A stretch of DNA of 22,276 nt from Calditrichia bacterium (GTDB taxonomy: Bacteria > Calditrichota > Calditrichia > RBG-13-44-9). A program made the translations under genes and the position numbers. Below are positions 2 through 19,380 of the stretch, one piece after another; positions within the stretch are counted from its first letter, which is position 1, and each line of letters starts with the position of its first letter. The stretch is taken from assembly GCA_037381445.1 (NCBI GenBank), contig JARRQT010000059.1, positions 1 to 22,276 of the forward strand, read 5' to 3'. The notes under the pieces were generated by a model, which saw nothing but the letters and a program-made list of their open reading frames with translations, was not told the origin of the DNA and did not search any database.

Positions 2-1960
2 CGGAAAGTGACTTTCTCTTTTCATCTCCGGCCGGATGAACGTCTTTATGGTCTTGGAGAAAAATTCCTCCCACTTAATCAAATGGGTCAACGGATTGTC
101 AGCTGGACCCGGGATGCGCTGGGTTCTACCAGTGAAAAATCCCATAAAAATATACCGTTGTTATGGAGCACCCGGGGGTATGGACTTTTCATTGATTCAA
201 CCGCCAGAATCACCTGGGAGTTGGGAACGGTCTCCTGTCAGAGTGCGACGATCACGATCGAATCTGAAAATCTGGATCTGTATCTGATTTATGGTCCTTC
301 GCCTGCCGAAATACTGCAGCACTACGCAGAGCTGACCGGCCATGCACCACTGCCTCCTAAGTGGAGTTTTGGTTTGTGGGTATCATCAGGAGGCACTTAT
401 CGTAACCAAACCTCCATGGAACGGCTGCTGGATGGTCTGGAAGAGCACAATCTTCCCGCCGATGTGGTGCACATTGATCCCTGGTGGATGAACTGGCGGC
501 AATATTGTGATTTTCGCTGGAACCGGGACGCTTTCCCGGAGATTGAGAAGTTTATCGAAGCCCTGCATAATAAAGATCTGAAGCTTTGTCTGTGGATTCA
601 GCCGTATATCTCGGTGGAAAGCGATCTGTTTGAGCACGGCCGGAAAAATGACTATTTTCTGAAAAAGCCCGACGGGGATATCTATGTCATCAATTATGGA
701 CTTTCTTTGGCACCCCGTCCCGATGGAATCATCCGGACGGCAGGAGATAAAGACGGCTGGAATGCTCCTGTGGCTATCGTGGATTTTTCAAAACCCGAAG
801 CTGCGGATTGGTACCGGGAGCTTATGAAGCCGGTTTTGCAGGACGGTGTGGATGTATTTAAGACTGATTTCGGCGAGGATGTCCCCGAAGATACCTGTTT
901 CAGCAATGGACAAACCGGTAGGACCATGCACAATTTGTATCCGCTGCTCTATACTAAAACAGTATTTGACACCACCTGGGAGGTAAAAGGATATGCCGTT
1001 GTCTGGGCCCGTTCCGGTTGGGCCGGCAGCCAGAATTACCCGGTGTGCTGGTCTGCCGATCCGGCTGCCGACTGGGCCAGTCTGGCGGCAACCATCCGCG
1101 GCGGCCTTTCCATCGGGATGTCGGGAATACCTTTTTGGAGTAATGATATTGGCGGCTACCGGGGGATGCCGGAACCTGAGTTGTACATTCGCTGGGCGCA
1201 GTTCGGTTTGTTTTGCTCCCACAGCCGGATGCACGGCGATAGTCCCCGGGAACCCTGGCATTTTGGGGCAGAGGCCCTGGACATTGTCCAAAAATATGTG
1301 AATTTGCGCTATCGCCTCTTTCCTTATCTCTACAGCACCGCCATCGACAGCAGTCGCAGCGGCATGCCGGTCATACGCGCCATGCCACTTGCTTTTCCTG
1401 ATGATCCCAATGCTCACGATAAGGATCTGCAGTATATGCTGGGGGAGTCGATTCTGGTGGCACCGGTGTATGACCGCAGCCGTTTCAGGACGGTTTATTT
1501 CCCGGCGGGGGAATGGATCGACATGGAGGATGGCAATATATACCGGGGGCCGGATAATATAAAAGTGCCAGCTCCACTGCATAAACTGCCTCTTTTTGTC
1601 AGACGCGGAACGATTCTCCCAATGATGAATCCGGCGATGCACATTCCGCAGGAAAAAGTCGATCCGCTCATTCTGCATGTTTATCCGGATTCCCGGAGCA
1701 GCTATAATTTTTGGGAAGACAACGGCGTCAGCCGGATTCGCTGTGAAAAAGACTCGCAAAACATTGTTTTTAAAATTAACGCAGAACTTGAGCGCTCGTA
1801 TGTGCTGAAATTTTGGCAAGTTGAGCATTTCAGCGAAATTATTTTGCAAAAGAACGGCATCAATAAAGGAATTGATCCAAAGACTGTTGAGGTAAAAGAT
1901 GATTTTTTAACAATCAAACTTGCCCGTACCAAGGCGGCCGGGATCATCATACTCCTCTAG
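2..1960 (+). CDS. GH31 glycoside hydrolase, YicI/alpha-xylosidase-like (5'-partial)
   Basis: Motifs YGLGEKF, KNIP, PPKWSFGLW, FKTDFGE (YicI-type nucleophile Asp), WSAD (acid/base position), WSNDIGG, SHSRMHG, REPW, QYMLG. The frame is open to the window edge (cgg aaa gtg), so the true start lies upstream. Confidence 0.92.
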   Translation, partial: RKVTFSFHLRPDERLYGLGEKFLPLNQMGQRIVSWTRDALGSTSEKSHKNIPLLWSTRGYGLFIDSTARITWELGTVSCQSATITIESENLDLYLIYGPSPAEILQHYAELTGHAPLPPKWSFGLWVSSGGTYRNQTSMERLLDGLEEHNLPADVVHIDPWWMNWRQYCDFRWNRDAFPEIEKFIEALHNKDLKLCLWIQPYISVESDLFEHGRKNDYFLKKPDGDIYVINYGLSLAPRPDGIIRTAGDKDGWNAPVAIVDFSKPEAADWYRELMKPVLQDGVDVFKTDFGEDVPEDTCFSNGQTGRTMHNLYPLLYTKTVFDTTWEVKGYAVVWARSGWAGSQNYPVCWSADPAADWASLAATIRGGLSIGMSGIPFWSNDIGGYRGMPEPELYIRWAQFGLFCSHSRMHGDSPREPWHFGAEALDIVQKYVNLRYRLFPYLYSTAIDSSRSGMPVIRAMPLAFPDDPNAHDKDLQYMLGESILVAPVYDRSRFRTVYFPAGEWIDMEDGNIYRGPDNIKVPAPLHKLPLFVRRGTILPMMNPAMHIPQEKVDPLILHVYPDSRSSYNFWEDNGVSRIRCEKDSQNIVFKINAELERSYVLKFWQVEHFSEIILQKNGINKGIDPKTVEVKDDFLTIKLARTKAAGIIILL

Positions 1961-2027
1961 CTTTTTGGATATTAAGACGGTCCTGCAGAATTAAAATTAT
2001 CATTAAAATTAAGAAGAAGGCAGGAAG

Positions 2028-3182
2028 ATGACAGAGAAAAAATCCTTCCACAGCATTTGTCGCTGGACGTTTAATTCAGGAAAAGGCGGTTTTGTCCCCT
2101 CAAATATCCGTCCGGGTTGGAACGAAGATAAATTAGACACAGCCGGTGTCATTCGATTAATCAAAGAGAAAGTAATTCCTCGTCTGCCACAGCATGTCGT
2201 CATAGGCTTCGAAATGCATTATGACAATGAAATAAATGAAAAAAATGCAGAAGAAATTGCCGCAGTACTGCAGGAAACTGATATCTACCTCGCAATGATT
2301 ACGCCTGGGGCGCATATCCATTTTGCCTATGGCGGAATTGCTTCGCTGGATAGCAAAGAACGAAGGATGGCGGAGGAACTGGGGGAGCGTACCGTTGATA
2401 TGGCCTATGGGACCCTGCGCAAAGCATGGTATCCGAAGGAAGAACAATATCCCACGCTGGTATTGTGGAACGGTTCTTACGGGTATGACCTTGCGACAAC
2501 CGCCGTGAAGCAGATGTATCGGAACTTGAAGGAAAGCATCGCAAGACTTTGCGATTATGATGCGAGGAAAGGTGGCGAGCTTTTTATTGGTATCGAACCG
2601 AAACCAAATGAAGGGCACCCGGCCATGCTGCTTCCTACCGTCGCCAGCAGTCTGCTTTTATGGAAAAAGCTGGAGGAGGAGTTTAGCATTTCCCCGGAGC
2701 GCAAAGGTGTTAATAAAGAATTTGGCCACTCGGAAATGGTGGGGTTGGACCCAGTATATGACACGGTAGAGGAGCTTGACAATAATGCCATGGTGCACAT
2801 GCATGTTAATTCGCAGGGATATAGCGATGGAATCCTTTTGGGCGGTCCTGGCAAATTTGACATTGACAATGGCGCACGGGTGAATGGAATGAATATCGCT
2901 ATTGCCGATCTGACCTTAAAAGCAGGATATCATCGCTGGAAGGGACACGATATGCAGCCAAGGCCTTATGATAATGAAGAGCAGGCAACTGATAGGGTGG
3001 TGCGAAGTATCCTGAGTTGGGAGGCTTGTGAGAAAGCGGCATCTGATCTGGACGAGGGATTGTTAATGGAGCACCTATCCAGAAGAGAAACTGCTAAAGC
3101 TGAAGATATGATGCGCCAAGCCGTAATGTTGGCGCAAAAATATTTTAATGAGATGTATGGTAGCAGACTGCAGCCTGAATAA
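2028..3182 (+). CDS. Xylose-isomerase-like TIM-barrel sugar isomerase, substrate uncertain
   Basis: RWTF, HYDNE, WNGSYG, IEPKPNEGHP, NKEFGH, HMHVNSQ, FDID and GHD line up with the xylose isomerase motif series. RBS-like AAGGCAGGA upstream. Confidence 0.85.
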   Translation: MTEKKSFHSICRWTFNSGKGGFVPSNIRPGWNEDKLDTAGVIRLIKEKVIPRLPQHVVIGFEMHYDNEINEKNAEEIAAVLQETDIYLAMITPGAHIHFAYGGIASLDSKERRMAEELGERTVDMAYGTLRKAWYPKEEQYPTLVLWNGSYGYDLATTAVKQMYRNLKESIARLCDYDARKGGELFIGIEPKPNEGHPAMLLPTVASSLLLWKKLEEEFSISPERKGVNKEFGHSEMVGLDPVYDTVEELDNNAMVHMHVNSQGYSDGILLGGPGKFDIDNGARVNGMNIAIADLTLKAGYHRWKGHDMQPRPYDNEEQATDRVVRSILSWEACEKAASDLDEGLLMEHLSRRETAKAEDMMRQAVMLAQKYFNEMYGSRLQPE

Positions 3183-3267
3183 AGTTATATTCCCAATCGA
3201 CAGAATATGAAATTCCCGTTTTCGAAGAAAATTGTCTAGAAAAAGACGGATTTGAGAGGATGAGCGT

Positions 3268-4281
3268 ATGAATAGTCGGGAGCTTGTAAGAAATATTATC
3301 AGTCGCAAGGAAGTTCCAAGATGTGGCTTCTGGCTGGGAAATCCTCACCCGGAAATGTTGCCGATTTTACTGAATTATTTCAACTTGCCGGATGAGGAAA
3401 CGTTACGCCTGCAATTGGGTGATGATATACGCTGGCTGACACCCCAATATTTTCCTGGCATTTACCGTCATCCTGAAGGAAAGGGGATCTTCGATCTGTG
3501 GCAAAACAAAAAATCTCTGGGGGAAGCCGGTCCGCTGGCGGGATGCGAGAATGTTAAGGAAATTGATAATTATGAATGGCCTGATCCTGACTATCTCGAT
3601 TTCTCAGGATTCTTACCAGTCCTGGATAATGCTGGTAATTATTACCGGGCAAGCGGATTCTGGGCACCTTTTTTCCATGATATTGCCGATCTTTTTGGAA
3701 TGGAGAATTATTTTTTAAAAATGTATACTAATCCGGAAGTTGTACATGCCGTTACGGAAAGAGTGTGCGGATTCTATTTGGAGGCTAATGAGCGTTTTTT
3801 CCATGAAGCAGGAGATTTGGTGGACGGCTATTTTTTTGGTAATGATTTTGGCACTCAGATGGACCTGCTCATCACTCCGGAGCAGTTCGAAGAGTATTTG
3901 CTGCCATGGATCATCCGTTTTGCCGAGCAGGCTCACAGGCACGGTTGCCAGGTATTGTTTCATTCCTGCGGCTCGGTTGCCAGGATTATTCCTTTATTGA
4001 TCGAAGCTGGGGTAGATTGTCTTCATCCCCTGCAGTCTAAAGCGAGCCGGATGGATGCCGGTACTCTTGCGAAAGAGTTTGGCGGCCGGCTTGCATTTAT
4101 GGGGGGAATCGATACCCAGGATGTTTTGGTAAATGCATCCGCTGAGGAGGTACGTGAGGAGGTTCGCCGGGTAAAGAGGTTACTTAGTCCAAACCTGATC
4201 ATCAGTCCAAGTCATGAAGCACTTTTGCCCAACGTCCCTCCTCAGAACGTGCTTGCCATGGCAGAGGCGGCCCTGGAATAG
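3268..4281 (+). CDS. Uroporphyrinogen decarboxylase (URO-D)/MtaA-fold family protein
   Basis: LFGMENYF, GNDFGTQ, FHSCG, GVDCLHPLQ, FMGGIDTQ, SPSHE, NVPPQN. RBS GAGAGGA. Confidence 0.85.
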   Translation: MNSRELVRNIISRKEVPRCGFWLGNPHPEMLPILLNYFNLPDEETLRLQLGDDIRWLTPQYFPGIYRHPEGKGIFDLWQNKKSLGEAGPLAGCENVKEIDNYEWPDPDYLDFSGFLPVLDNAGNYYRASGFWAPFFHDIADLFGMENYFLKMYTNPEVVHAVTERVCGFYLEANERFFHEAGDLVDGYFFGNDFGTQMDLLITPEQFEEYLLPWIIRFAEQAHRHGCQVLFHSCGSVARIIPLLIEAGVDCLHPLQSKASRMDAGTLAKEFGGRLAFMGGIDTQDVLVNASAEEVREEVRRVKRLLSPNLIISPSHEALLPNVPPQNVLAMAEAALE

Positions 4282-4330
4282 TAATTCCAATTTTTATTAA
4301 CTTGAAATATTTGGAGTGGGAAGATTTTAG

Positions 4331-5335
4331 CTAACCGTTGAAGACTTTCAGTGCCCGAAAAAATGCATCGATATTTGCCTGAGGGACTCCCGGCGGTGTG
4401 TCGCAGCCGCTGGATAGCACAAAATTGGAATGCCCGCGGGTTGCCTCCAGCAACTTCCGGGTAGCTGTATAGACTTCTTCCTCCGATGCCATTTTCATGA
4501 CATTCACCGGATCAAGATTTCCCATGATTAATATGCTATCATCAATCGCATCAAGCGCTTTCACGATATCGCAGCGGTTTCCGAAATGCAGTCCGGCAGC
4601 ACCGGTATTCTGCATGGTTTCCAGAAGGGGATCGGTATTGCCGCAATTGTGCAGTACAATCATAAAGTAATCATCCTGCAGGGCGCTGACCAGTTGCCGT
4701 ATATAATGGGAAGAGAAAGATTCGCACATATCGGGAGACAGCATCCCCGCTGCGGGTTCTGCTATAAATATACCGCTGGCTCCGCAATTTTTGAATTCCT
4801 GGATATAGTTTGTTAAAAAGGCTGTGCATTTTTCCAGAAGCAGTTGCACAGGTTCCGGATCCAGCAGCAAGGCAGTCATGATTTCTGTCATGCCCAAAAG
4901 ACGTCCCGCCAGGCTGAATGGACCGATGCATCCGGCAAACACCGGACGGTCATCTATAGCCTGAGCAGCCTTCCGGGCCGCTTCCACATATTGTGGCAGC
5001 CGGCCAGCCTCCATTTTGGGCAGAGAAAGAGCGCGGATTTTCGCTTCGTCTTTCAGCAGAATATCGGCAACGGTAGGGATCTCATGTTCAGCAAACTTAA
5101 CCTGCGCACCAAATGCCTCGGCTTCCACCGAAAGATCCATGATCATTGTAGATGCTGCGCTGGGGTAAGACTCCGCCAGGCTCCGGATTGCCTGATACTG
5201 CACCTCGCCTTGTTTCACTGCTTCTTGAATTGTGGCTCCGATAGCCTCGATGCCCGGATGGGTCATGACCGGGATTGCTGCTCGTGTCTCCCTTTTGATC
5301 AAAGTTTCCTTCCATTCCCTCATGTTTATTTTCAT
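4331..5335 (-). CDS. MtaA/CmuA-like methylcobamide methyltransferase (URO-D superfamily)
   Basis: DLSVEAEAFG, GRLP, GPFSLAG, AEPAAG, LHNCG and SSGCD (His-X-Cys...Cys zinc-binding set of MtaA-type enzymes), MGNLDP. RBS AAGGGGAG. Confidence 0.87.
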   Translation of the reverse strand: MKINMREWKETLIKRETRAAIPVMTHPGIEAIGATIQEAVKQGEVQYQAIRSLAESYPSAASTMIMDLSVEAEAFGAQVKFAEHEIPTVADILLKDEAKIRALSLPKMEAGRLPQYVEAARKAAQAIDDRPVFAGCIGPFSLAGRLLGMTEIMTALLLDPEPVQLLLEKCTAFLTNYIQEFKNCGASGIFIAEPAAGMLSPDMCESFSSHYIRQLVSALQDDYFMIVLHNCGNTDPLLETMQNTGAAGLHFGNRCDIVKALDAIDDSILIMGNLDPVNVMKMASEEEVYTATRKLLEATRGHSNFVLSSGCDTPPGVPQANIDAFFRALKVFNG

Positions 5336-5550
5336 TTATTCTCCCCTTAGAAATTTATATTCTGCAGAGTCAGCTTTTCCACGATTCGCTGCGTACTGAT
5401 AGTAAGTAGTTATTTAAACGGTGCCATTTTAATCAGAACCATATGAATCCGGGGCCATCCGCTTTCGGAGATCGCACATTGATGCGCCCTCCGGGTTATG
5501 TTGTTATTTGATAAGGTATAATCAACATTTAACGTAAATTTACATACCCG

Positions 5551-8500
5551 CTAACTCTGGGTCAGATAGCTGAATGAATTTAACAGCAGTCTTTTGAGAA
5601 TCACCGGCTGCATTCCGCTCTGAGCCCCGGTCACTCCTCCGGCCATACCGGGAAGCGTAAAAAACAGGATCCTGCCTTTTCCCAGGGTGGAGGTAAAGAC
5701 TGCCGCCCCAATATTACGGTCGTGATCGCGGCCGTATCCCACAAAAACCTGAACGTTTTTTCCATCCAGCATAATGCCCTCCGAACCGCCAACTGGTACC
5801 TGGTAATAGCTTCGCATGGCCTGATTCACCGGTAATCCTTCAAATACTGGATTTTCCCGGATAAAAAACCAGGAGCCCATCCAGGAGGCCCGCACATTGC
5901 CAACATGACCGAGGTAATCATAAGCACCGGCTTTGCCAAGCAACTTCGCATATGCATCGGCGGCTTCGGAACCGTCCGGGATCAGAAGCAAGGGTGTTCC
6001 CTCCTTTACTTTCTGAATCACTCCACCATCGATATTGAGCTTCTGGCCATAAGTCTGCCAGACCAGCCCGTTTTTGTCGCGGTAGGGTTCACCGCCGCAA
6101 TTGATAGCAATAACAGTATCGCCGGCGGTTATTTTAATAGCGCTGAACTTGGCGTAATTTATTTTATGCTCCGGAATGGTAATTTTGATCACACCGGCCG
6201 GGGCATCTACAATGAAGCTGGTGTCAATGGCAATATTCTTGCCGCCGGCGGTTTTGAAGACATCAAAATCATCGAGCACTGTCTTTCCATTGATTGCCAC
6301 ATCGAACACCCGGTTTTCCGGTCCGCTGAGGGTAACTTCTGCGAACCGCAGGGTGACTCTGGCTTTCCCTTTCGGTAGATCACTGAAGATATACTCCAGA
6401 TTCTTGTTATATCCCCAGCTTTCGGTGTGGAACAGGCGGTCATCATCCGTTCCTGAAATCTCAGTAGTTGAATCCACAACAGAACGCCACCCCTGCAGCA
6501 GGCGGGTGGTCGCCAGAATGAGATCGTAGTGATGTCCTGGCTGGTATTTCTCAGCCCGGATACCTGGATAATTATTCAAAGCGCCAATCATTTCCGGAAT
6601 GTGGGTAATGACTCCCAGTTGTTTCTTTTGTGAGACTTCAGGGTGGGTATTCACCACCAGCAGTGTTTCTTCACTAAAAATGTCACTATTCTCTGCATCC
6701 ATCAGTTTGAGAAGATACCGACCCTCTTTTGTCAATGGGGGAGTGGTAAGGGCTTCAGCAATGGGGTAGACAAAGCAATCTTTTTTCCATTTCGGGACAG
6801 AGTAGCTGCCAAATGCTGTCTCCCCGCTATCGGGACTTATCATGGATAGCTGCAGCGTTTTGGAGGCAGGCTGGTTGGTTTCATTAAGCAGGAAAATATC
6901 CATAGTGTCTTTTTCACCTGCCGCCACCACCAGGGCCCGCGGCTTTATAACCGGTCGCAGATGGGCAAAACGGCTGTGCAGCAATTCGGGATTTCCCTTA
7001 AAATTGCGAAGATTATCCACCAGGCCGGAATGATTTTCAATGGATGTGGACTCCCAGCCACTGATTACCAGGAAATCGTTCTCATCCGACAAACGAGCGG
7101 TTTCAATGACCCTTCCCCAGAAATCATAACACTTGTTGCCAATACTCAGGAAGAGGGATTCATCGGTGGGGAAAGCCTGGCGGAATCCCCAGCGGTCAAG
7201 GAATTTGGCATATGCGTCTTCTACCTCAAGGTGGTCTTTCAGATCATAGCTCTCACCGCCGTTTGCCTTTATCTGTCGGATCAATCGGGTGTGATTATCC
7301 GGAACTGCTGCACCCAGCATTTCTCCCCAGGTCACAATTTCCTTGCGATTATCGGAATGGTGGGTGAAATCTTGCGGGTTCTTATACATATTGTCCAACC
7401 AGACTCCGGGGCCGCCCACCGTGTGCCGGTCCCACCACCCTGAATACCCATTCCCACGGTCGCAGTATATCGTGGTATCGTAAGGCTGCATCCAGACCTG
7501 GTTAACAGGAGGAATACCGGATTTCAGCACCACTATGCGGCTCGGATCTTCTTGATGAATTCGCCGGATAATACGGAAAACGCGCGGATTCTTTAAATCG
7601 GGATTGATTTCATTCTGAACACTATAAAGAACCAGCGATGGATGGCGGCGGTGATCCCGCACCATCTGCATGATCTTCGCTTCCATATATTTCTCTGCAA
7701 AGGTTTTTGCATCACCCTGTTTGCCGGAGGTATCCAGCGGCTTTTTGGGAGAATCCGCATATAAGGTGTATTCTTCGCCCAGTGCTGTTTGCCCGCCGCC
7801 CGGTTCCATATAGCGAAGCAGGCCCAGTCGGTCCTGGGCATCGAGAACTTCTGTCTTTCCCACATTCCGGTGAAACTGAATACAATTCATACCAAAAGCT
7901 TTGGCATCCTTCACTTCCTTCTCTGCCAATGCAGGAGATGGCCACAGCCCGTTCATACCCCAGAATCCCCAGGAAATGGCCGATATCAGACGAAGCCGTT
8001 TGCCGTTCAGACGCAGCACTGCGTTATTTCCGATGCCATCCGCCTCAAACCAGCGGAATCCAAAAGTGACCTCCCTGGTGTCTTTAAGATGCTGGCTAGT
8101 GCTGGCAGATGTGCACTGGATATTGGCTCTCAGCCGGTAAAGATTGGGATGATCCGGATCCCATAATTGCGCATCGGGATAGCTGAGCGCCTCATCCAGC
8201 AAGAGAGTCATATTTCCGTTGATCTTAAAAGGCTTTTGGATGCGGCTCACCACTTTGTCCGCTTGAGAAGGATCGATGATTTCGTAAGTTATGGTGCCTT
8301 TTATATCTTCTCCGGAGGCGTTCGTTAACTTGGCCTGAGCCTTGATAGTAGCGGTCTTGGGAGTATTCATGGCCCATAGATCGTTCACATATACTGGATC
8401 ATGGGCCCTGATTGTCATTCCGCGATCGAGTCCCCCAAAACCATGACTGGAGTGAAACCGGTATTTCCCCCAGGTAAGGTAGCGCGTATCCACCCAGTCC

Positions 8501-9078
8501 ATTTCTCCGCCCGGATTGGTAATGCGGATCGCTAAAAGGTTCTTTTCACCGGGCAGCATTGCCTCACTGAGATCACAATTGAAGGCGGTTTCATTGATAA
8601 TACTATACCCAACCAGTTTCTCGTTCAGATAAACTTCCGCCCGCAATCGTGCCCCTCTGATATGCAGGATAACTTTTTTCCCTTTAAAATCCGCCGGGAT
8701 ATCGATGGTGTGCCACCACCAGGACACCCCTTTGTAGTTTCCGTTCTTCACCTGCGGATCTTCTGTCTCAAAGTAGTACTCGTTTTTGTAAGGACGGTAG
8801 CCAAATGCCCCCCAAAAGTGTTCCTCCACGGGGGATGGTAAGGTGATTTCGATACCATGGGAAGAATTCAGAGCTTCCCATCCTCCAGAGGGAGGATTTA
8901 CCGGCAGTCTGGCAAGATCCACCTCATCCGGCAGATAGATATCGTCATTCTCCCAGGCCGCAGCTGTATCGGGCCAAAGGCGCCAACCGCTGTCCGGAAC
9001 CTCAATAATCTGTCCCGCCTGCAGCAGTGCATAGATGACAAGGGCAAGAATCCATGGTAGTAATTTTAGGCTACGCAT
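5551..9078 (-). CDS. Secreted GH2-family glycoside hydrolase with an inserted malectin-like module
   Basis: Signal peptide MRSLKLLPWILALVIYALLQA; GVSWW sugar-binding domain; LWDPDHPNLY; FGFRWF; LNGKR; RHPSLVLYSVQNE (acid/base); WGE (candidate nucleophile); malectin motifs VTLRFAE, RVFDVAING, FDVFKTAGG, FSAIKI. RBS GGAGG. Confidence 0.85.
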   Translation of the reverse strand: MRSLKLLPWILALVIYALLQAGQIIEVPDSGWRLWPDTAAAWENDDIYLPDEVDLARLPVNPPSGGWEALNSSHGIEITLPSPVEEHFWGAFGYRPYKNEYYFETEDPQVKNGNYKGVSWWWHTIDIPADFKGKKVILHIRGARLRAEVYLNEKLVGYSIINETAFNCDLSEAMLPGEKNLLAIRITNPGGEMDWVDTRYLTWGKYRFHSSHGFGGLDRGMTIRAHDPVYVNDLWAMNTPKTATIKAQAKLTNASGEDIKGTITYEIIDPSQADKVVSRIQKPFKINGNMTLLLDEALSYPDAQLWDPDHPNLYRLRANIQCTSASTSQHLKDTREVTFGFRWFEADGIGNNAVLRLNGKRLRLISAISWGFWGMNGLWPSPALAEKEVKDAKAFGMNCIQFHRNVGKTEVLDAQDRLGLLRYMEPGGGQTALGEEYTLYADSPKKPLDTSGKQGDAKTFAEKYMEAKIMQMVRDHRRHPSLVLYSVQNEINPDLKNPRVFRIIRRIHQEDPSRIVVLKSGIPPVNQVWMQPYDTTIYCDRGNGYSGWWDRHTVGGPGVWLDNMYKNPQDFTHHSDNRKEIVTWGEMLGAAVPDNHTRLIRQIKANGGESYDLKDHLEVEDAYAKFLDRWGFRQAFPTDESLFLSIGNKCYDFWGRVIETARLSDENDFLVISGWESTSIENHSGLVDNLRNFKGNPELLHSRFAHLRPVIKPRALVVAAGEKDTMDIFLLNETNQPASKTLQLSMISPDSGETAFGSYSVPKWKKDCFVYPIAEALTTPPLTKEGRYLLKLMDAENSDIFSEETLLVVNTHPEVSQKKQLGVITHIPEMIGALNNYPGIRAEKYQPGHHYDLILATTRLLQGWRSVVDSTTEISGTDDDRLFHTESWGYNKNLEYIFSDLPKGKARVTLRFAEVTLSGPENRVFDVAINGKTVLDDFDVFKTAGGKNIAIDTSFIVDAPAGVIKITIPEHKINYAKFSAIKITAGDTVIAINCGGEPYRDKNGLVWQTYGQKLNIDGGVIQKVKEGTPLLLIPDGSEAADAYAKLLGKAGAYDYLGHVGNVRASWMGSWFFIRENPVFEGLPVNQAMRSYYQVPVGGSEGIMLDGKNVQVFVGYGRDHDRNIGAAVFTSTLGKGRILFFTLPGMAGGVTGAQSGMQPVILKRLLLNSFSYLTQS

Positions 9079-9157
9079 TTTTATATGCCTCCAATTATTG
9101 ACTATGCGTTAAATAATGCGATGTATCAGAATCCCGGAATGAGGTCTGCTGCTTATT

Positions 9158-9571
9158 TCAAAACACCACACCGGCGACCAGAATCAGATTAGAGAATGGG
9201 GTCGCTTCGCCCGTTCGGGCAAAAGCAATATTATGGGTTTCACGAGTCAGTTTTTTAAACTGCTCGTGGGAAATCTTCCTGACCGGTACACCTGTGAGTT
9301 CTTCGTTCAGCAAGGTATTAAGCGCGTTAAAAAAATCGGGCGATCTTTTTTCCATTTCATTGGTGACAATGACCTCTTCCACCTTCAGCTCCTGTAATAT
9401 GACTTTTAAGACATCCAGAAGCCGCGGAAGGCCGGGTGTTATAGCCAGATCCACCAACTCTTTTCCATATGGGATCGGCAACCCGCTGTCTGCTACAACC
9501 AGATGGTCCCCATGTCCCATACGGGCGATCACCGCGGAGAGCGGCGCATTGATTAAGGATGTTTTTTTCAT
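9158..9571 (-). CDS. rbsD: D-ribose pyranase (RbsD/FucU family)
   Basis: MKKTSLIN..LS.VIARMGHGD.LVVADSGLPIP, DLAITPGLP, HEQFK and RTGEATPFSN.ILVAGVVF match RbsD end to end. Confidence 0.93.
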   Translation of the reverse strand: MKKTSLINAPLSAVIARMGHGDHLVVADSGLPIPYGKELVDLAITPGLPRLLDVLKVILQELKVEEVIVTNEMEKRSPDFFNALNTLLNEELTGVPVRKISHEQFKKLTRETHNIAFARTGEATPFSNLILVAGVVF

Positions 9572-9628
9572 GTTTCGGTTCCTTATTCTTCTTTGAGTTT
9601 ATGTTCTGTCATCAGGACCATTTTATTA

Positions 9629-12097
9629 TCATACTGGCCCGGCAATTTCTGCTTCATCGATCATGTCGACTTCTGCCCAGCGACCGGAGTGTTCGACACG
9701 GATAGTTTTTATTTCCAAAGGCTTAAAATTCAGCCGGATGAAAGCCTGCAGATCATTGAGATTCAGCTCAGACATGGTATTCTTTCCGGCGATTTCCTGC
9801 AGCCGGAAAACCAGGGATTTCCCATCCCACGATGGTTTGCAGGCCAGCACCCGGATATTTTGGGGAGCAATTCTGAAGAATTCCCGGAATCCGTCTTCGC
9901 TTTGGAACCGTTGGGGAAGATTAAGATCTTTGCGGAAAGATCCGAATGGCAGGTGGGCATAGACGGCCGGCGGCGTATTTAGCCAGTTGGCCAGAGCGCT
10001 TACCTTATCCCGAATCTCTTTAACCCGGCCAATGGTGACCGCAAGCCGGATATCATGGACACCCTGGTCCATATACTTGCGCTCCGGAAAATTACCCAGT
10101 TCAAATCCACGTTCGTGGCAATAGGCGGCACTTCTTAGCATGGATAATCGGATCTCGCCATCCCGGAAATCGAATCCGTTTTGTCCACTGTTGATGACTG
10201 CCAGGGCGGTGTCGGCGTGGGAGGATTTTCCCTGAACAATCAGCCAGCGTCCATGGACATATTCCTGCCCATCAGCAGGACTTTCAGAAAAGCCACCCGG
10301 AATTTCATGCACGACTGTCTCCTTTTCCAGAACTGTGGGAATTGATAATTTGAGTCGTCGTCGCTGTTCATTCCAGTGAATGCGGAGCCGGTATTCCAGC
10401 ACCGGCCATTGGGCATAAACAATGGTATCCAGAATCATCCGGCTGCTTTTATAATTCAATACCGTTTGATAGATGGTGCGAACCGGTCCGTTTTCCCTGA
10501 TCCGGGTGCCTGCAGGTTCAGTGACAAACTCGCCTGCGACATTGCGATATTGCCAGCATTCTGTTCCCCAGGAATCGCAGCAGTCTTCCATTATCAGCGG
10601 CCGTAACAGGAGACCGCTGAGCACATTTCCACCTTTACCAGTGGAAAGCGAATTAAGTAGACCGCTTTTTTCATCAAACTCAATATTCAGGGCGGACGGT
10701 GCGGATTCCTGTATCTTTTCACCTTCAATGGCTTCCAGGTGATAATTATAGAGTCCGACAGAGGGGAGGTCTGCCATAAAACAGATTTTCCGTCTCCATT
10801 GATTGAAGGGAAGCAGTGCTTCCGGCTGCTCTTCCTGGCACTGAATTTCCGATCCGTCCCGGTTGAGCAGGTTCAGATGCCATTTGCCGGACCATTTGGG
10901 CCTGTGAGAGATCATGCATTCAAACTCAACAGGGACATGGGGCATATGAGGTATGGTGTTTAAAACGGAAACGGGCAGATACACATTCCTGACGGGGCCC
11001 AGGTTATGGGCTATGGCAGCAGAAAGCTTGATGCGCCTGGCGGTTTCGGAGGCTTTGCCATACAAGTCCAGGGCATCTTTTTCTGCGGGTTCGGTGCAAC
11101 TGCCGGGAAGGATATCATGAAAATCGTTGAACAGGTGGTCCTTCCAGGCCTCCTCCAATTGGCGGTGAGGATATGGCTGGTTAAAAAGCCACCAGGCGGA
11201 CGTGCTTAGCGTTTCTGTCTGCAAAAGTTCATGCAAACTTGTCACCGAGCGCCTTTTCAGCCGCGAAAGGGAAGTATAGCAGCCGGTAAAAATGCGCTGC
11301 AGACCGCCTTCCACAACCGGAAGCTCATTATACAAATGCTTTACGACATTGTAGAACCTGTCCGGTGTGCTGTGGATAATCTTAACCCGCTTTTCCTTCG
11401 CCATAAAAGCGTCAATGATATTCAGATCCTCACGCGTGGCCCCACCGCCATGATCACCGATTCCCCAGAATACCGGAACATCCCGCTTTAATTGCAGGGC
11501 CAACTTCACTCCTTCTTCCAGCCGCTGCTTCATGTTTTCGTATTCGGTGTGATACAAACCCACGGCAATTCGATATCCCAAAATCTCCGATCCATCGACA
11601 CCTTTCCAGCGGTAAAGGTCCGAGGGGAGTTTCAGATCGGGATTCTGTGGCCGAAGATGGATGTACATCTTGTAGCCTGCCTTTGTCAGGAGCTGAGGGA
11701 GTGCTGCACCGTGGCCAAAGGAATCAAAATTATAGGCCACAAGTGGTGTGACGCCAAAGCGTTGTCGGAAATAATGGCGTCCGGTTGTTATTTGGCGGAT
11801 GAGGGACTCGGTGCCGGGAAGATTGACATCCGGTTGCAGATACCAGCCGCCGCTGATAAACCAGCGTTCTTCCCGAACCAAATCCTTAATCTCACTAAAT
11901 AATCCGGGATCATATTCCTCAACCCATTGATAAAGGATAGCTTCATTGTGATTGAATATAAATGTATCATGTTCCCTGAGCAGTTGGACTGCGGTTCGGA
12001 AAGTCGAAAGTGCTTCGGCACATCCTTCTTCCCAGCGCCATTGCCAGACAGGATCCAGATGTGCGTTGCAAATAAGATGAACAGTCGGGATGTCCAT
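9629..12097 (-). CDS. GH38 alpha-mannosidase-like glycosidase, no signal peptide
   Basis: NAHLDPVWQW (Zn-binding HxD), GGWYLQPD, ESLIRQ, FDSFGH (nucleophile), GDHGGG, GCYTS, FHDILPGS, EIPGG, LSMLRS. RBS GAGG. Confidence 0.92.
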   Translation of the reverse strand: MDIPTVHLICNAHLDPVWQWRWEEGCAEALSTFRTAVQLLREHDTFIFNHNEAILYQWVEEYDPGLFSEIKDLVREERWFISGGWYLQPDVNLPGTESLIRQITTGRHYFRQRFGVTPLVAYNFDSFGHGAALPQLLTKAGYKMYIHLRPQNPDLKLPSDLYRWKGVDGSEILGYRIAVGLYHTEYENMKQRLEEGVKLALQLKRDVPVFWGIGDHGGGATREDLNIIDAFMAKEKRVKIIHSTPDRFYNVVKHLYNELPVVEGGLQRIFTGCYTSLSRLKRRSVTSLHELLQTETLSTSAWWLFNQPYPHRQLEEAWKDHLFNDFHDILPGSCTEPAEKDALDLYGKASETARRIKLSAAIAHNLGPVRNVYLPVSVLNTIPHMPHVPVEFECMISHRPKWSGKWHLNLLNRDGSEIQCQEEQPEALLPFNQWRRKICFMADLPSVGLYNYHLEAIEGEKIQESAPSALNIEFDEKSGLLNSLSTGKGGNVLSGLLLRPLIMEDCCDSWGTECWQYRNVAGEFVTEPAGTRIRENGPVRTIYQTVLNYKSSRMILDTIVYAQWPVLEYRLRIHWNEQRRRLKLSIPTVLEKETVVHEIPGGFSESPADGQEYVHGRWLIVQGKSSHADTALAVINSGQNGFDFRDGEIRLSMLRSAAYCHERGFELGNFPERKYMDQGVHDIRLAVTIGRVKEIRDKVSALANWLNTPPAVYAHLPFGSFRKDLNLPQRFQSEDGFREFFRIAPQNIRVLACKPSWDGKSLVFRLQEIAGKNTMSELNLNDLQAFIRLNFKPLEIKTIRVEHSGRWAEVDMIDEAEIAGPV

Positions 12098-12118
12098 TGT
12101 ATACCTCGGAATTAATTT

Positions 12119-13879
12119 TTAAATCTCATCCGCAGCCGGCAGGTTTTTATACCAGGTGAAATACATTATCATTCCAAGCCCGGCAAAGATCACGATCCAA
12201 ATCCACATATTTCGCCACTGGTGCAGGAAAAGGAAAAAGGGGATGAGAGCCAATGAAACCTGAAAAAAGGCAGACAAAAGACCATTCAGAACATCAAATT
12301 TGGGCAGTTTGTCATTGACCGGTATCAGCCCACGGCGCTCTGCTTCCAGCCGGACCGGCTTCCAGACGCCGAATGGCCTTACCTTGGAATAGAATTTTAT
12401 GAGAATTTCCATATCGGTTGGTTTTGAAATGAATCCGATGACAAGAGTGATGATAAGCGAACCAATGGTATCAAATGCCAGTGAATGGGCTATTGACCAG
12501 GATGGCAGGAATATCTTCTGAAATACAATAATTCCGGCAGAGCAGGCCATGCTCCAGACAAATGCCCTCGCGCTGAAACGCCACCAGTGCCAGCGCATGG
12601 TCGCAGGGACAAGAATCATTGTCACCACTACAAAAATCATTACTTCCCAAGCGGATACGATGTTTTTGAAAGAAAGACTGAAGATAAAAGCAATGGTAAT
12701 TGCTACGATAGAAGCCAGCTGTCCGAAGCGGACCAGTTGCTTTTGAGTCAGATTTTTTCCCCAATATCGTTTCAGAAAGTCGTTCGTAACCACGGAACTG
12801 GTCACATTTACCATGGCACTCAGGGTCGACATCAGTGCTGCCAGCAGTATGGCCATAAACAGACCGCGCATACCCGTTGGGAGTTTGGTAAGCACCAGTG
12901 GCATGATCTTTTCAGCATCAAAGCCGGCTTCGGTTCCTAAATAATAGATGCCCAGAATGAGAAATGCGCAGCCAATAATCCAGCGAAGGGTATAACCGAT
13001 CGTCCACATCCCGGCAGCCAGAGAAGCGTCCCGAGGGCTTTTTGTAGTCAGGAAGAATTGAAAATCCCAGACATTGGGACCCGCCAGAACCCGGAAGATC
13101 AGCCAGGCAAAACCGGCCAGGATAATGGTCCCAAAGGCGCTGTAATGTTGATAGGCAGCGGGAGTATCTTTCAGATAGGATGACCAGAGATTCCAGGTGG
13201 GAGTCAGTGAACTCCATTCCGCGTTTTTGTTCGCAATAAAGGAAAGATCGGAACCTGTTTTGAAGGCCATGACACCAAGGATAATGGCGCCGACCGCAAT
13301 CAGCATCGTTTGGAAAACATCTGTAACAATCACCCCGATAAATCCACCCAGCGTGACATAAATACCCACTACTCCAAAAACCAGAAGTGCAGACTGCCAT
13401 TGTGAGAAAGGCAGGAATTCCTCTGCAAATTTGCCCGTTCCCACGGCCATAAACATCAGGTTAAATATCATGAGAACCAGCAGGAAGAGAGCAGCGGCGA
13501 TTCGTGCCATTTCAGCATCGCGGTTATCACCAAAGCGGGTTTCGTTCCATTCCGCAAAAGTCATCACACCAGACCGGCGGATATATTTGGCCTGGAATGC
13601 CATATAAAACGCGATAATCAGCCATCCCCAGAAAATGTGGGTGACCCAGATAGATTTTAGTCCAAGATAAAACATGGCGCCCACTAGGGCCATGGTTCCC
13701 CCGATATCAATGTAGCTGGAGCAGCCGGAAAGGCCCAGCATCCACCAGGGGACATTCCGGTCGGCCAGATAATAGGAATCCAGCTCTTTAGTGGCTCTTT
13801 TTTTGACATAAAAACCGATGAAAGCGACCAGAATAAGATAACCGGTAATCAGGATGAGGTCATACGGATGGAGATTCAT
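12119..13879 (-). CDS. Sodium:solute symporter (SSS/SLC5 family), likely sugar or oligosaccharide uptake
   Basis: Many hydrophobic helices; YYLADRNVPWW, TFAEW..RFG, YVTLGG..GVIVTD.FQ, GLFMAILLAALMST. ATG at 13879 preferred; the GTG at 13891 is an alternative start. Confidence 0.9.
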   Translation of the reverse strand: MNLHPYDLILITGYLILVAFIGFYVKKRATKELDSYYLADRNVPWWMLGLSGCSSYIDIGGTMALVGAMFYLGLKSIWVTHIFWGWLIIAFYMAFQAKYIRRSGVMTFAEWNETRFGDNRDAEMARIAAALFLLVLMIFNLMFMAVGTGKFAEEFLPFSQWQSALLVFGVVGIYVTLGGFIGVIVTDVFQTMLIAVGAIILGVMAFKTGSDLSFIANKNAEWSSLTPTWNLWSSYLKDTPAAYQHYSAFGTIILAGFAWLIFRVLAGPNVWDFQFFLTTKSPRDASLAAGMWTIGYTLRWIIGCAFLILGIYYLGTEAGFDAEKIMPLVLTKLPTGMRGLFMAILLAALMSTLSAMVNVTSSVVTNDFLKRYWGKNLTQKQLVRFGQLASIVAITIAFIFSLSFKNIVSAWEVMIFVVVTMILVPATMRWHWWRFSARAFVWSMACSAGIIVFQKIFLPSWSIAHSLAFDTIGSLIITLVIGFISKPTDMEILIKFYSKVRPFGVWKPVRLEAERRGLIPVNDKLPKFDVLNGLLSAFFQVSLALIPFFLFLHQWRNMWIWIVIFAGLGMIMYFTWYKNLPAADEI

Positions 13880-13901
13880 AATAAAACCCACTTTTGATAT
13901 G

Positions 13902-13915
13902 TGTTAGCGTTAACA
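13902..13915. promoter_or_regulatory. LacI-family operator TGTTAGCGTTAACA
   Basis: 14-bp near-perfect palindrome with a central CG, 22 bp upstream of the symporter ATG. Matches the TGTTANCGNTAACA pattern typical of LacI/GalR sugar regulators. Confidence 0.7.
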
Positions 13916-14284
13916 TTTATTGTTAAAAAATTTACCCTGCCTGGAAGTATCAGTGGAGATTCAGCAAGGTTTGCACTTTATTATATGAAATTGTCCTAGA
14001 CACTCAGCTGCATCCGCCGGGCTGAATATTAACCCTGTGCCACCGATGCAAGTCAACAGGAATTGATTTTAAGTTGACCCGGGGCAATCCCGAAATCAGG
14101 GATCAACAGAAAACAGAGACCAACATTGAGCAGGGTTCGGCCTTAAACCGTTTTTGAGTGATCGATATACAATTTGGGCATCAATTGAAATTCTTGTGCG
14201 GCGTATTTTGCATGTTTTTTGGATTTGACTCGTTTTAGTGGACAAGGGATCGCTAAAAGCATCCAACAAAAAAATTGTTTTATC

Positions 14285-14314
14285 TTGTATACTTCAAAAT
14301 TTATGTGTTAATAT
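14285..14314 (+). promoter_or_regulatory. Putative sigma70 promoter of galM (TTGTAT-N18-TAATAT with extended TG)
   Basis: Consensus-like hexamers about 110 bp upstream of galM. The context is AT-rich, so a chance match is possible. Confidence 0.3.
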
Positions 14315-14424
14315 GTTAAGTTGAAAATGGGTGTAATTGCATAATTGGGATGTCGGCAGTAAGTAAGATAATTCATAAAACAGCACGATAAGTTGATTGC
14401 CTAACGAGAAGAGGAGTATATGTA

Positions 14425-15567
14425 ATGAGAGTTTTAAAAATGTCAGTATTTTTAGGATTAATTGTTGCGCTCATGTTTTCCTGCACTAGTACTCCAAAAA
14501 ATGAAAACAGTATTAAAAAAGAAGTATTTGGAACGATGCCATCCGGAGAACAAGTTTTTCTTTATACCTTGAGGAATGAAAAGGGGATGGAAGCAACAAT
14601 AACAAATTATGGCGGCATTGTCGTTTCACTGTTGGTGCCGGATAAAAATAATAAGATGGGAGATGTGGTTCTTGGATATAATAATCTTGAAGGTTTTTTG
14701 CATGACAGCCCTTATTTTGGTGCTCTCATTGGTCGCTTTGGAAACCGTATTGCTAAAGGAAAATTCACGCTGGAGGGTAAGGAATATACGCTGGCAATCA
14801 ATAATGGCGAAAATACGCTTCATGGCGGTCTGAAAGGTTTTGACAAAGTGGTCTGGACTCCGGAAGAAATAAAAACCGCTGACGGACGTCCGGGGCTCAA
14901 ACTGACCTATCTCAGCAAAGACATGGAAGAAGGCTATCCGGGCAATCTTTCTGTCACTGTTGTCTATTCCCTTACCGATGATAGTGGTCTGCAAATTGAT
15001 TATTCAGCCACTACCGACAAAGCGACGGTTATCAATTTGACAAATCACTCCTACTTCAATCTGAGCGGCGAAGGATCAGGCACAATTTTGAATCAACTGA
15101 TGATGATTAATGCTGACAAATATACGCCTATTGATCAGGGATTAATCCCCACCGGGGAATTAGCGGATGTGGAAGGCACGCCTTTTGATTTCCGGGAACC
15201 GACAGCGATTGGCAAGCGCATCAACGAAGATAATCAGCAATTAAAATTTGGATTAGGGTATGACCATAACTTTGTTCTGAATAAAAAAGATTCAGAAATG
15301 TCACTGGCTGCCCGGGTTTCAGATCCCAAAAGCGGAAGAGTCATGGAAGTATATACAACTGAACCAGGTCTGCAGTTTTATTCAGGGAATTTTTTGGATG
15401 GAAAAATTATTGGAAAAAGTGGGCGGGCCTACAATTACCGCGATGCCTTCGTGCTGGAAACTCAGCATTTCCCTGATTCGCCCAACCATCCGGGATTTCC
15501 TTCCACGGTTTTAAGACCCGGGGAGAAGTATGTTTCCCAAACCATCTATAAATTTACGACAGAATAA
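14425..15567 (+). CDS. galM: Aldose 1-epimerase (galactose mutarotase), lipoprotein
   Basis: GRFGNRI, LHGG, EEGYPG, NLTNHSYFNL, GYDHNF, LETQHFPDSPN; lipobox LMFSC. RBS GAGGAG. Confidence 0.95.
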   Translation: MRVLKMSVFLGLIVALMFSCTSTPKNENSIKKEVFGTMPSGEQVFLYTLRNEKGMEATITNYGGIVVSLLVPDKNNKMGDVVLGYNNLEGFLHDSPYFGALIGRFGNRIAKGKFTLEGKEYTLAINNGENTLHGGLKGFDKVVWTPEEIKTADGRPGLKLTYLSKDMEEGYPGNLSVTVVYSLTDDSGLQIDYSATTDKATVINLTNHSYFNLSGEGSGTILNQLMMINADKYTPIDQGLIPTGELADVEGTPFDFREPTAIGKRINEDNQQLKFGLGYDHNFVLNKKDSEMSLAARVSDPKSGRVMEVYTTEPGLQFYSGNFLDGKIIGKSGRAYNYRDAFVLETQHFPDSPNHPGFPSTVLRPGEKYVSQTIYKFTTE

Positions 15568-16526: not shown

Positions 16527-17047
16527 CAATCTTCTCCGATTATAAAATATTTCAATATATTCAAAGATACCTTCTCTGGCCTGCTCCCGGATTTGACAGG
16601 TATGGAAATAAACATGTTCTGTCTTTAAAGTATGGAAAGAACTTTCTGGAACGGCATTATCATAATGCCGTAAGGCATGGCTTATGCCACAGTTACCTTT
16701 ATGTGTTTTTGAGAAAATGGAGAGCGCTTTTTTTAAATGTCACGCCCCAGTTTGGTCTCCGCCGATTCATTTTGCAAACGGGCAACCTCCTTGTTTGTCT
16801 CTTTTGAGGCTGACCCATTCTTCTCTTCCTGCTCCGCTTTCTTTATCCGCCGATATAACAGATCTTTGCATATGTCTAATTCCTCGGCTACTGCTATAAC
16901 CAGTATCTCTGTCTGCCGGCATAAATTCACCGACTCTTGCTTAGAAGAATCATCGTATTTGCGTCGCTGCTTTACCAATGCGACACCGGCTTCTTTTCAT
17001 TATAATCTGCCTCCTAATTCTGTGTCCACAAAAAAATAGCAAGATTA
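16527..17047 (-). mobile_element. IS3-family element remnant: left IR, orfA, and the C-terminal piece of orfB
   Basis: Minus strand begins TAATCTTGCTATTTTTTTGTGGACAC (IS3-like IRL). orfA reads [39 protein letters not shown], then directly [44 protein letters not shown] (integrase C-terminus). Confidence 0.88.
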
Positions 17048-17191
17048 CCGGAACCCGGCGGATCGGTCGTGCGGATCGAAACCGTTTTATCATCTGCCGG
17101 TCCAGGCAAACTGAACACGTCGAATATCATACGCACGCAAAGAACTTTTTTCCAATCAACCGGGTTTCACAGGACGGGAGTATGGGATGAT

Positions 17192-18295
17192 ATGAAACCA
17201 AGTAATTATCTTCGTTCATTAGTTCTGCTCTTTTTGTTCATGGGGGTCCTTATTGTCCCGCCCTCCAGATCGACCCTGAACAGTCTCGCATCATTTTCAG
17301 GCAGCGGCCCGCGGCCGGCCGAGGTGCAGTCACAGAAACCCGCCCGGCAGAAGGGAGAAACAACAGCGGCGCTCCGGAAACTGGGACTCCAACTGGTTGC
17401 CGATGTTCCGCTGCCCGGCGGGATCGCCCGCTTCGATTATCAAACCATCGACCAGATTCACAGGAGGCTTTTCATCTCTCAAATGGGTGCAAATCTCATG
17501 ACTGTGTTCGATCTTGACGCAAACAAAATTGTGGGCACTGTAGGGGACATCCCGAGGCCTACCGGAATTCTGGCGGTCCCGGCGTTGAACAAGGTTTACG
17601 TATCGGCCAGCGCGGCAAATAAGGTTTATGTTGTGGATGAAAAGTCACTGAAAACCATAGCGATGGTGCCGACAGGGTCTTTCCCGGACGGCATTGCCTG
17701 GGATCCGGAACTGAAGCGAGTGTTTGTTTCATGCGAATTCGGCGAGGCCGTCACGGTATTCGATGCGCTGAATAACAATGTGATAACAAACATACAAGTG
17801 GACGGAGAAGTCGGGAATACCCATTTCGATCCCGTATCAAAGATGATCTTTTCCACGGTGCAGACCAACGGTGAACTCGTTGAGATCGATCCCGAGAAGC
17901 TGAGTATTGTTGCCCGCTATCCTCTGCAAGGATGCCAGGGCCCGCACGGATTTTATATCATCCCGAAGCCGCACTACGCGTTCATTACCGGGGAGGACAA
18001 CGCCAGCTATGTGGTCTTCGATATGGCATCGAAAAGCATCATCGCCCGCGGCAAAGTGGGGGCCGGGCCGGACGTTCTGGCCTACGACAGCGGGTATCAT
18101 CGGCTTTATGTCGCTTCGGAAAGCGGCGTCCTGTCTGTTTTCGACATTGAAGACAGGGCGGTAAAAGAGATTGGCAGTGCATTTTTAGCAGAGCATGCGC
18201 ACTCGGTCAGTGTGGACCGCAAGACGCACCGGGTTTTCCTGCCCCTCCGGAACAAAGGAGGAAGGGCGGTGCTGGAGATATTGAAACCGGATTGA
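17192..18295 (+). CDS. YncE/YVTN-type beta-propeller protein, probably exported
   Basis: Repeating blades (RFDY, RLFIS, PTGI, KVYVS, FPDGIAWD, RVFVS, GPHG, GPDVLAYD, RLYVAS, HAHSVSVD). Hydrophobic N-terminus after the ATG at 17192, which has GGGA/GGAG upstream. The track start at 17069 looks over-extended. Confidence 0.82.
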   Translation: MKPSNYLRSLVLLFLFMGVLIVPPSRSTLNSLASFSGSGPRPAEVQSQKPARQKGETTAALRKLGLQLVADVPLPGGIARFDYQTIDQIHRRLFISQMGANLMTVFDLDANKIVGTVGDIPRPTGILAVPALNKVYVSASAANKVYVVDEKSLKTIAMVPTGSFPDGIAWDPELKRVFVSCEFGEAVTVFDALNNNVITNIQVDGEVGNTHFDPVSKMIFSTVQTNGELVEIDPEKLSIVARYPLQGCQGPHGFYIIPKPHYAFITGEDNASYVVFDMASKSIIARGKVGAGPDVLAYDSGYHRLYVASESGVLSVFDIEDRAVKEIGSAFLAEHAHSVSVDRKTHRVFLPLRNKGGRAVLEILKPD

Positions 18296-18465
18296 GGAAC
18301 TTCAGATGTAGTCCGTCTTGCAGAGAGGGAAGAACCGTAGCGTCGGACGCCGTCCAGAATTACATCGCCCACGTCCTGCAAGGCGGCCATCCTGGCCCAT
18401 CTCTTTTGGGTTACGCTGAGGTTTCTTATGTTACGCTTTATTTTCATCCGTAAAAAACGGAATGA

Positions 18466-19224: not shown

Positions 19225-19349
19225 ATGACAAGCACCTATGTATTCATGTAACTCAATTTAAAACTGTCGCTTAAAAAAACACGTAAAAAGAAAAAAAGTT
19301 CGCTTCAATTTATTTTCAATTTCTTAAATTAATAAAATCGTCCGTATCA

Positions 19350-19380
19350 AATGCAGCCTATTTTGCAGATGGGCTGCATT
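19350..19380. terminator. Strong hairpin AATGCAGCCTAT..ATGGGCTGCATT in the divergent intergenic region
   Basis: Stem of about 12 bp. On the minus strand it ends in a short T run about 125 bp upstream of the DUF169 start. Confidence 0.4.

Follow-up and report, generated by a model that had tools for sequence, protein, structure and literature searches.

Two convergent rows of sugar-utilization genes lie in the first two-thirds of a 22,276-nucleotide stretch of the genome of a sediment-dwelling Calditrichia bacterium (the window, meaning the whole stretch), and each row terminates in a gene of the uroporphyrinogen decarboxylase (URO-D)/MtaA fold (PF01208). Together with a neighboring contig, these genes encode a candidate system for B12-dependent O-demethylation of sugars. 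C-numbers below denote contigs of the same assembly (G000), G-numbers genomes and L-numbers loci; the five URO-D-fold paralogs of the system are lettered UroD-A to UroD-E. All nine genes named in the first-pass annotation of this DNA were found where it had placed them (Table 1), and the window indeed contains no gene for tetrapyrroles or for methanogenesis. One contig from a second study's run covers positions 1624-6666, comprising the isomerase, both URO-D genes and part of the glycoside hydrolase (GH) family 2 gene, and the gene order is therefore no misassembly. Among the glycosidases, the GH31 enzyme groups as YicI-like and the GH38 enzyme as mannosidase-like; the GH2 enzyme fell in no specificity group.

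Table 1. Features of the locus; positions refer to the window unless a contig is named.
Feature	Position	Strand	Remarks
GH31 glycosidase, YicI alpha-xylosidase-like, C-terminal 652 aa	2..1960	+	587.9 bits against a cut-off of 606
Divergent class-I xylose-isomerase-like protein	2028..3182	+	
UroD-D, URO-D/MtaA fold, candidate sugar O-demethylase (methyltransferase 1, MT1)	3268..4281	+	His232-Cys234; His316-Glu317 at third zinc position
UroD-E, MtaA-like, candidate thiol-methylating (methyltransferase 2, MT2) or S-demethylating enzyme	4331..5335	-	Full His229-Cys231-Cys311 zinc set
GH2 glycosidase with malectin domain	5551..9078	-	Signal-peptide-like N-terminus
RbsD/FucU family pyranase/mutarotase	9158..9571	-	151 bits against a cut-off of 93
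GH38 alpha-mannosidase-like glycosidase	9629..12097	-	
Sodium:solute symporter	12119..13891	-	
LacI-type palindromic operator candidate TGTTAnCGnTAACA	13902..13915		Before symporter operon
Aldose 1-epimerase (GalM-like)	14425..15567	+	
Stand-alone corrinoid protein, 221 aa	C113:6065-6730	-	DxHxxG motif

The GH31 gene is cut at its 5′ end by the contig start, and its N-terminus lies on C113: window bases 1-528 overlap the start of C113 end-to-end at 94% identity. Strain overlaps of this kind are frequent in the assembly. The C113 copy of the overlap (L020:242-527) has a one-base gap that throws the GH31 gene out of frame, and the window copy stays in frame; the gap probably reflects a difference between strains or a mistake at the contig end. 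Three relatives (G001, G014 and G015) span the join on single contigs. In G014 and G015 one contig carries everything from xylB through the isomerase, and G001 has the whole locus minus the corrinoid and activation genes, which in that genome lie at another site, next to a gene for homocysteine methyltransferase. The plus-strand row of the window is thus only the tail of a longer C113 operon. Reading along the minus strand of C113, an operator (C113:8461) is followed by genes for a XylB-like FGGY kinase, a stand-alone corrinoid protein, a MetH activation-domain protein (PF02965) adjoining it, a D-lyxose isomerase (E 9e-83 versus PDB 7nzo), UroD-A, UroD-B, UroD-C and the GH31 N-terminus; a ribokinase-like PfkB gene and a divergent gene for a sugar-binding protein lie farther upstream. 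The corrinoid partner that the first-pass annotation foresaw therefore exists, in the same operon, and D113, H115 and G118 of this protein are invariant in 30/30 aligned sequences. The aldose 1-epimerase, previously counted in the system, is divergent and has no homolog in any fetched locus of relatives, and for these reasons it probably lies outside the conserved system, though adjacent.

Both operons carry the same regulatory signature. Comparison of upstream regions yielded the palindrome TGTTAnCGnTAACA, present at 4 genomic sites, all of them intergenic, where composition predicts 0.36 genome-wide and 0.026 between genes; 19 permuted-arm controls produced 0 intergenic sites. The sites stand before the symporter operon (window 13902), before xylB on C113 and therefore also before the corrinoid gene of the same operon, before a GH63-like gene and a LacI gene on C120, and before a symporter–galactokinase–TonB-receptor row on C10. 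As in LacI regulons, a conserved palindrome with a central CG precedes operons and a LacI gene is among the targets; we infer that the C120 LacI binds the palindrome. The operator precedes xylB in 7 genomes and directly precedes the corrinoid gene in 4/33 corrinoid loci, including that of G044, in which the operator-preceded corrinoid gene and UroD-A are on different contigs. Operator sites and the galactose row also occur in G002, G003 and G011 (with LacI seen in G002 and G003), genomes with no match for UroD-A or the corrinoid carrier. Because the regulon is kept there without those matches, the methyl module appears to have been added to a sugar regulon. A literature search for three forms of the operator found none.

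The five URO-D paralogs all carry PF01208 and are 20-30% identical to each other; a quick tree, which included no characterized enzyme, placed them as separate deep lineages and did not resolve their branching order. None reaches the cut-off of the HemE model TIGR01464 (302.95; UroD-E 82.9 bits, B 31.6, and no match for D, A and C) or of the MtaA/CmuA model TIGR01463 (235.4; E 147.8, B 89.1, D 52.3, A 49.9, C 30.9). An N-terminal catalytic Arg motif is typical of HemE. It is absent from all five genes, a comparison that has no positive control since the N-terminus of the genome's own hemE fell outside the set of open reading frames (ORFs). Structures predicted for UroD-D and UroD-B (predicted local distance difference test, pLDDT, 93.7 and 90.1) both have MtaA as top Foldseek match, and in VIA-align the UroD-D model ties between UroD (Z 24.7, root-mean-square deviation 3.2, 301 residues aligned) and MtaA (Z 23.9, 3.1-3.3, 291-294 aligned). 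UroD-B (L020:2233-3393) is 76-83% identical to proteins labeled Anaerolineae/Chloroflexi, unusually high across phyla, and this level of identity suggests transfer or strong constraint.

The zinc sites divide the paralogs. UroD-E has H229, C231 and C311 in 60/60 homologs, the full His-Cys-Cys set of MtaA/CmuA, and their counterparts in the alignment are residues 246, 248 and 325 of the MtaA chain, the zinc ligands H240, C242 and C319 in native numbering. The MtaA-type His-x-Cys is kept by all five, and UroD-A, B, C and D depart from His-Cys-Cys at the third position, which is Asp in UroD-A (22/22), His in UroD-D (56/56), Asn or Ser in UroD-B (43/43) and probably Asp in UroD-C, where the alignment is weak. 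According to PMC10418091, S-methyltransferases are His-Cys-Cys enzymes, and O-methyltransferases have the Cys replaced by a carboxylate or a non-ligand. At the level of aligned residues, then, the zinc site of A, B, C and D matches the pattern reported for O-methyltransferases, and that of E matches thiol methyltransferases.

UroD-A consistently co-occurs with a corrinoid protein. It is found in 15/86 genomes of the phylum, and a stand-alone corrinoid match is present in 15/15 of these, versus 36/71 genomes without UroD-A; in 10/13 close orthologs the two genes share a contig. The predicted complex of UroD-A with the corrinoid protein scores 0.85, versus 0.00 for the best of 3 controls, with runs agreeing in at least 92% of contacts and a partner pLDDT of at least 91. 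The mark applied to such scores is reached by 116/157 solved pairs and 2/215 mismatched pairs, and the score itself may stem from likeness to known complexes.

Linkage in other genomes was gauged in a survey of 80 metagenome loci of UroD-B, of which 33 are long (at least 8 kb); a Pfam scan covered 93 proteins, mostly representatives of the 154 unlabeled clusters. Among the long loci, 24 have a glycosidase match, 17 a transporter and 13 a sugar kinase or isomerase. The control for glycosidases, 77/3394 of the genome's own genes, overstates the contrast, because the references came partly from the same UroD-B loci. The recurrent linkage of URO-D genes to glycosidases proposed at the outset is thus borne out at UroD-B loci, but among the five paralogs the window's own UroD-D and UroD-E have the weakest ties to sugar genes. 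UroD-D is held by 11/80 UroD-B loci elsewhere; UroD-E is part of the locus in 5 members of the family and occurs in 1/80 UroD-B loci, and 4 of its 9 distant loci have corrinoid-system genes, 2 of these with a methanol-type MtaB. On these counts across relatives and metagenome loci, UroD-D and UroD-E are the loosest parts of the system and UroD-A is its core. A plasmid collection returned distant matches only.

How the cobalt would be kept active, and where the methyl group would go, differs from what was first envisaged. Matches to the RACo/RamA activator family (PF14574) and to formyltetrahydrofolate synthetase (FTHFS) were not found in the genome, which is 91.85% complete; instead of the RamA/ASKHA activator predicted earlier there is the MetH-type S-adenosylmethionine (SAM) domain, PF02965. 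Nor does the locus contain the predicted stand-alone methyltetrahydrofolate methyltransferase: PF00809 matches occur only in a full MetH (C67) and in one C119 gene. The recurring partner is a homocysteine methyltransferase, which stands alone on C397, apart from the full MetH, and is found inside the locus in G005 and L102 and beside the LacI cluster in G009. With neither RACo nor FTHFS found, and with MetH and a stand-alone homocysteine methyltransferase present, the methyl group probably ends on a thiol rather than in acetogenesis. On C397 (L030:354-1764) the homocysteine S-methyltransferase gene sits behind a short activation-domain ORF (164 aa). The genome has one cobalamin riboswitch (L207:1501-1687 on C34), near a contig end, and the gene it would control lies outside the piece covered. 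There are also four COX1-family matches, and since the host thus has heme-copper oxidase genes, "oxygen-independent" suits the pathway better than the earlier label "anaerobic".

The analysis establishes which genes are present and in what order, the palindrome common to both operons, the patterns of the zinc sites and the co-occurrence of UroD-A with a corrinoid gene, and on this footing we lean toward B12-dependent O-demethylation of imported sugars, with the methyl group passed to homocysteine or another thiol. In such a pathway, the GH2, GH38 and GH31 enzymes would release methylated monosaccharides or short oligosaccharides, to be imported by the symporter and a neighboring ABC system. 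UroD-A, most likely, would then use zinc to activate the ether oxygen while Co(I) on the corrinoid protein accepts the methyl group, and UroD-B, -C and -D would perform the same removal for other sugars or positions. The methyl group would be handed to a thiol, either by the stand-alone homocysteine methyltransferase to give methionine or by UroD-E, and the activation-domain protein would restore oxidized Co(II) using SAM. RbsD, two kinds of isomerase (lyxose/mannose and xylose-type) and the kinases would channel the freed sugars into metabolism. In terms of the corrinoid-dependent methyl-sugar route first put forward, the corrinoid partner and the glycosidase link have held, while the activator, the folate route, the anaerobic label and the substrates have not.

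A number of observations weigh against this reading. Known O-demethylases act on aryl ethers, which are better leaving groups than alkyl sugar ethers, and methionine demand alone would hardly absorb a catabolic methyl flux. A corrinoid gene is found in only 4/33 long UroD-B loci (6/80 overall), and a DUF455 ferritin-like gene in 9/33 (14/80), never together with a corrinoid gene; within the phylum the corrinoid gene is common (51/86) and is often found at a distance from sugar genes, in the company of homocysteine methyltransferase or MtaB. No close relative has UroD-D in the locus, and the 12 loci of UroD-D orthologs in the phylum hold 0 corrinoid genes and 1 glycosidase match. The G014 locus is without UroD-E, and the 9 distant UroD-E loci gave 0 glycosidase matches by the reference set used. 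In L033, L078, L159 and L160, no strict operator was found upstream of xylB. Kin genomes, moreover, are not independent. CdmB, a relative of the O-demethylases, acts on another substrate and uses no zinc, according to PMC13222342.

Two further gene families recur beside components of the system. An example of DUF455 next to UroD-B is L120:6577-7779 (among L080-L149). PhyH-family dioxygenase genes repeatedly lie beside corrinoid genes (L164:10477-11328, L176:10332-11183, L177:8602-9450, L167:12986-13855 and L180:2752-3540), and do so also within MtaB and homocysteine-methyltransferase clusters that have no sugar genes.

Several other explanations compete for the same genes. Some paralogs, chiefly B, C and D, could use zinc but no corrinoid to transform sugars: an oxidized uronate might be decarboxylated to give a pentose, or a keto-sugar might undergo elimination, with help from the products of the DUF455 (di-iron), PhyH or GFO oxidoreductase genes. 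The B12 module would then serve UroD-A only or be a passenger. This would account for the 29/33 long UroD-B loci without a corrinoid gene and for the GFO (5/33) and PhyH (3/33) genes found alongside the nine cases of DUF455; it would also suit the frequently solitary UroD-D, the several pentose enzymes downstream, the namesake of the fold being a decarboxylase, and the equal likeness of the UroD-D model to UroD and MtaA (Z 24.7 and 23.9). Such chemistry is harder to square with an MtaA-type His-x-Cys in every paralog, with a corrinoid gene under the same operator, with the 15/15 pairing of UroD-A and its predicted complex, or with the finding that no uronate catabolism gene was seen in the four operons, and we regard it as unlikely. 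A shade more doubtful is the idea that the methyl donor is not a sugar ether: an S-methyl sugar (methylthio-pentose), methanol or another small methyl compound from glycan breakdown could be salvaged into methionine. The thiol-type His-Cys-Cys set of UroD-E fits this, as do the occurrence of E and corrinoid orthologs with MtaB, the presence of pentose kinases, RbsD and an alpha-xylosidase-like GH31, and a cystathionine gamma-synthase family gene that follows corrinoid–UroD-A in G027; however, MtaB has no match in the genome itself, four of five paralogs are without the third Cys, and UroD-E appears in just one of the 80 UroD-B loci.

The remaining accounts carry little weight. That the URO-D genes have merely collected in a sugar island as passengers with no part in it, or are paralogs of heme synthesis, might be supposed from the mobility and frequent solitude of UroD-D and UroD-E, but synteny is conserved in several lineages and the operator is common to both operons, making the notion very improbable. 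Heme-synthesis paralogy in particular was rejected: the genes fall below the hemE cut-off and a true hemE, with a strong URO-D match and heme neighbors, lies elsewhere (C396/C33). The least probable account runs the system in reverse, so that sugars or glycans are methylated from methyl-corrinoid for storage or detoxification. Corrinoid methyl transfers are reversible, and the MetH activation domain binds SAM; against this, the surroundings are catabolic (hydrolases, importers, isomerases and kinases under a repressor-type site) and the conserved set is without a glycosyltransferase.

Methylated sugars resist breakdown. P450 sugar demethylases, one answer to this problem, need oxygen and release formaldehyde. 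Those of marine bacteria are described as oxygen-dependent in PMC6292453; they share the purpose proposed here, lifting a methyl ether that blocks sugar catabolism, and belong to an unrelated enzyme family. Corrinoid aryl O-demethylases, exemplified by MtvABC of Moorella, Odm/Vdm of Acetobacterium and MtoABCD of Methermicoccus, resemble the locus more closely on the evidence of PMC8630106 and PMC13222342: a UroD-superfamily MT1 (in several paralogs that serve different substrates) and a stand-alone corrinoid protein are combined in one operon with transporters and a regulator. The locus shares the URO-D-fold MT1 and the stand-alone corrinoid protein, but its context is sugar rather than aromatic, its activator is of the MetH SAM type with no RACo/RamA found, it has no folate- or pterin-directed MT2, no FTHFS was found, and the host has oxidases. 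The methylcobamide:coenzyme M methyltransferases MtaA and MtbA (PDB 4ay7 and 4ay8) have a like fold, and UroD-E has their His-Cys-Cys zinc set, whereas all paralogs fall below the family cut-offs, four are without the third Cys, and the host is no methanogen. Type 1 mlp clusters, as portrayed in the accessible part of Kountz and Balskus (PMC10418091), likewise combine several URO-D-fold methyltransferase homologs and a corrinoid protein with no folate methylase, but they need a Ram protein, are His-Cys-Cys nearly throughout, and have sulfur- or selenium-metabolism neighbors, with no sugar genes described in that part. Such clusters are defined by at least 2 Mlps with a corrinoid and a Ram protein, all co-directional, and no Ram was found here. 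In Bacteroides thetaiotaomicron, likewise a glycan degrader, GH31 and symporter genes flank genes for a corrinoid protein and URO-D-type proteins. These genes (BT_0340, BT_0342 and BT_0343), annotated as methylamine-type, are named 'Mta' in PMC8941943. BT0339, BT0340, BT0343 and corrinoid all go unmentioned in the main text of PMC8121099; its supplementary fitness tables may bear on novelty. No description of a corrinoid-dependent sugar demethylase was found in the literature searched, to which subscription papers are largely an exception; what is new here is the operator common to both operons, the concerted presence of UroD-A and its carrier, and their predicted complex.

The sugars concerned can be narrowed only in outline. 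Judging by the regulon, the glycan would be a mixed one that contains mannose, galactose, either xylose or glucose, and either D-arabinose or L-fucose. The rhamnogalacturonan II (RG-II) sugars and 4-O-methyl-glucuronate originally named as substrates gained no support and were set aside, because no uronate or RG-II gene was seen in the four operons. Methylated actinobacterial wall polysaccharides or algal glycans may be candidates. The wider sugar island, with its galactokinase, ribulokinase, fucose-isomerase-like and GH172 genes, recalls by analogy the D-arabinan clusters of PMC10509167. Beyond the locus this island likely extends over C248, C303, C211 and C250 (L180, L203, L202 and L204), where ribulokinase, PhyH, GH2, an ABC transporter, an L-fucose-isomerase-like gene, GH63-like hydrolases and a second GH38, split over two overlapping ORFs, were seen; C109 (L201) carries GH172 and GalT. 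A second sugar locus (L022:1-9191 on C23 of G000) has two more URO-D-like genes, one with His-Cys-His, together with a symporter, GH2, GH28, an isomerase-like barrel and an Nramp-like transporter; one of these, UroD-F, has an ortholog in G008 accompanied by a symporter and a corrinoid gene (L073). In the rest of the window, a weak transposase helix-turn-helix remnant occupies the gap after the epimerase (16733-16978), and the genes at 17069-22178 look unrelated: those for a YncE-like beta-propeller and a DUF169 protein are followed by cyclophilin-like, cupin, DUF2255 and aldo-keto reductase genes.

The locus names the parts of a possible pathway, sorts them by zinc site and ties a B12 carrier to a sugar regulator, with UroD-A and the corrinoid protein the pair to single out first. 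More broadly, and with a little less than an even chance in our estimation, there may be a widespread and as yet undescribed family of B12-dependent sugar O-demethylases, in which lineages A-D differ in the sugar or the position that they demethylate in glycans of algae or microbial walls, the methyl group leaves via homocysteine or a thiol (possibly as methanethiol), and a di-iron or 2-oxoglutarate oxygenase provides an O2-dependent alternative in some hosts. If this is true, the methylated-carbohydrate pool of sediments and guts would have an oxygen-independent route of breakdown, and thousands of proteins now labeled uroporphyrinogen decarboxylase (homolog searches matched 3354 for UroD-D and at least 7984 for UroD-E) would be re-annotated.

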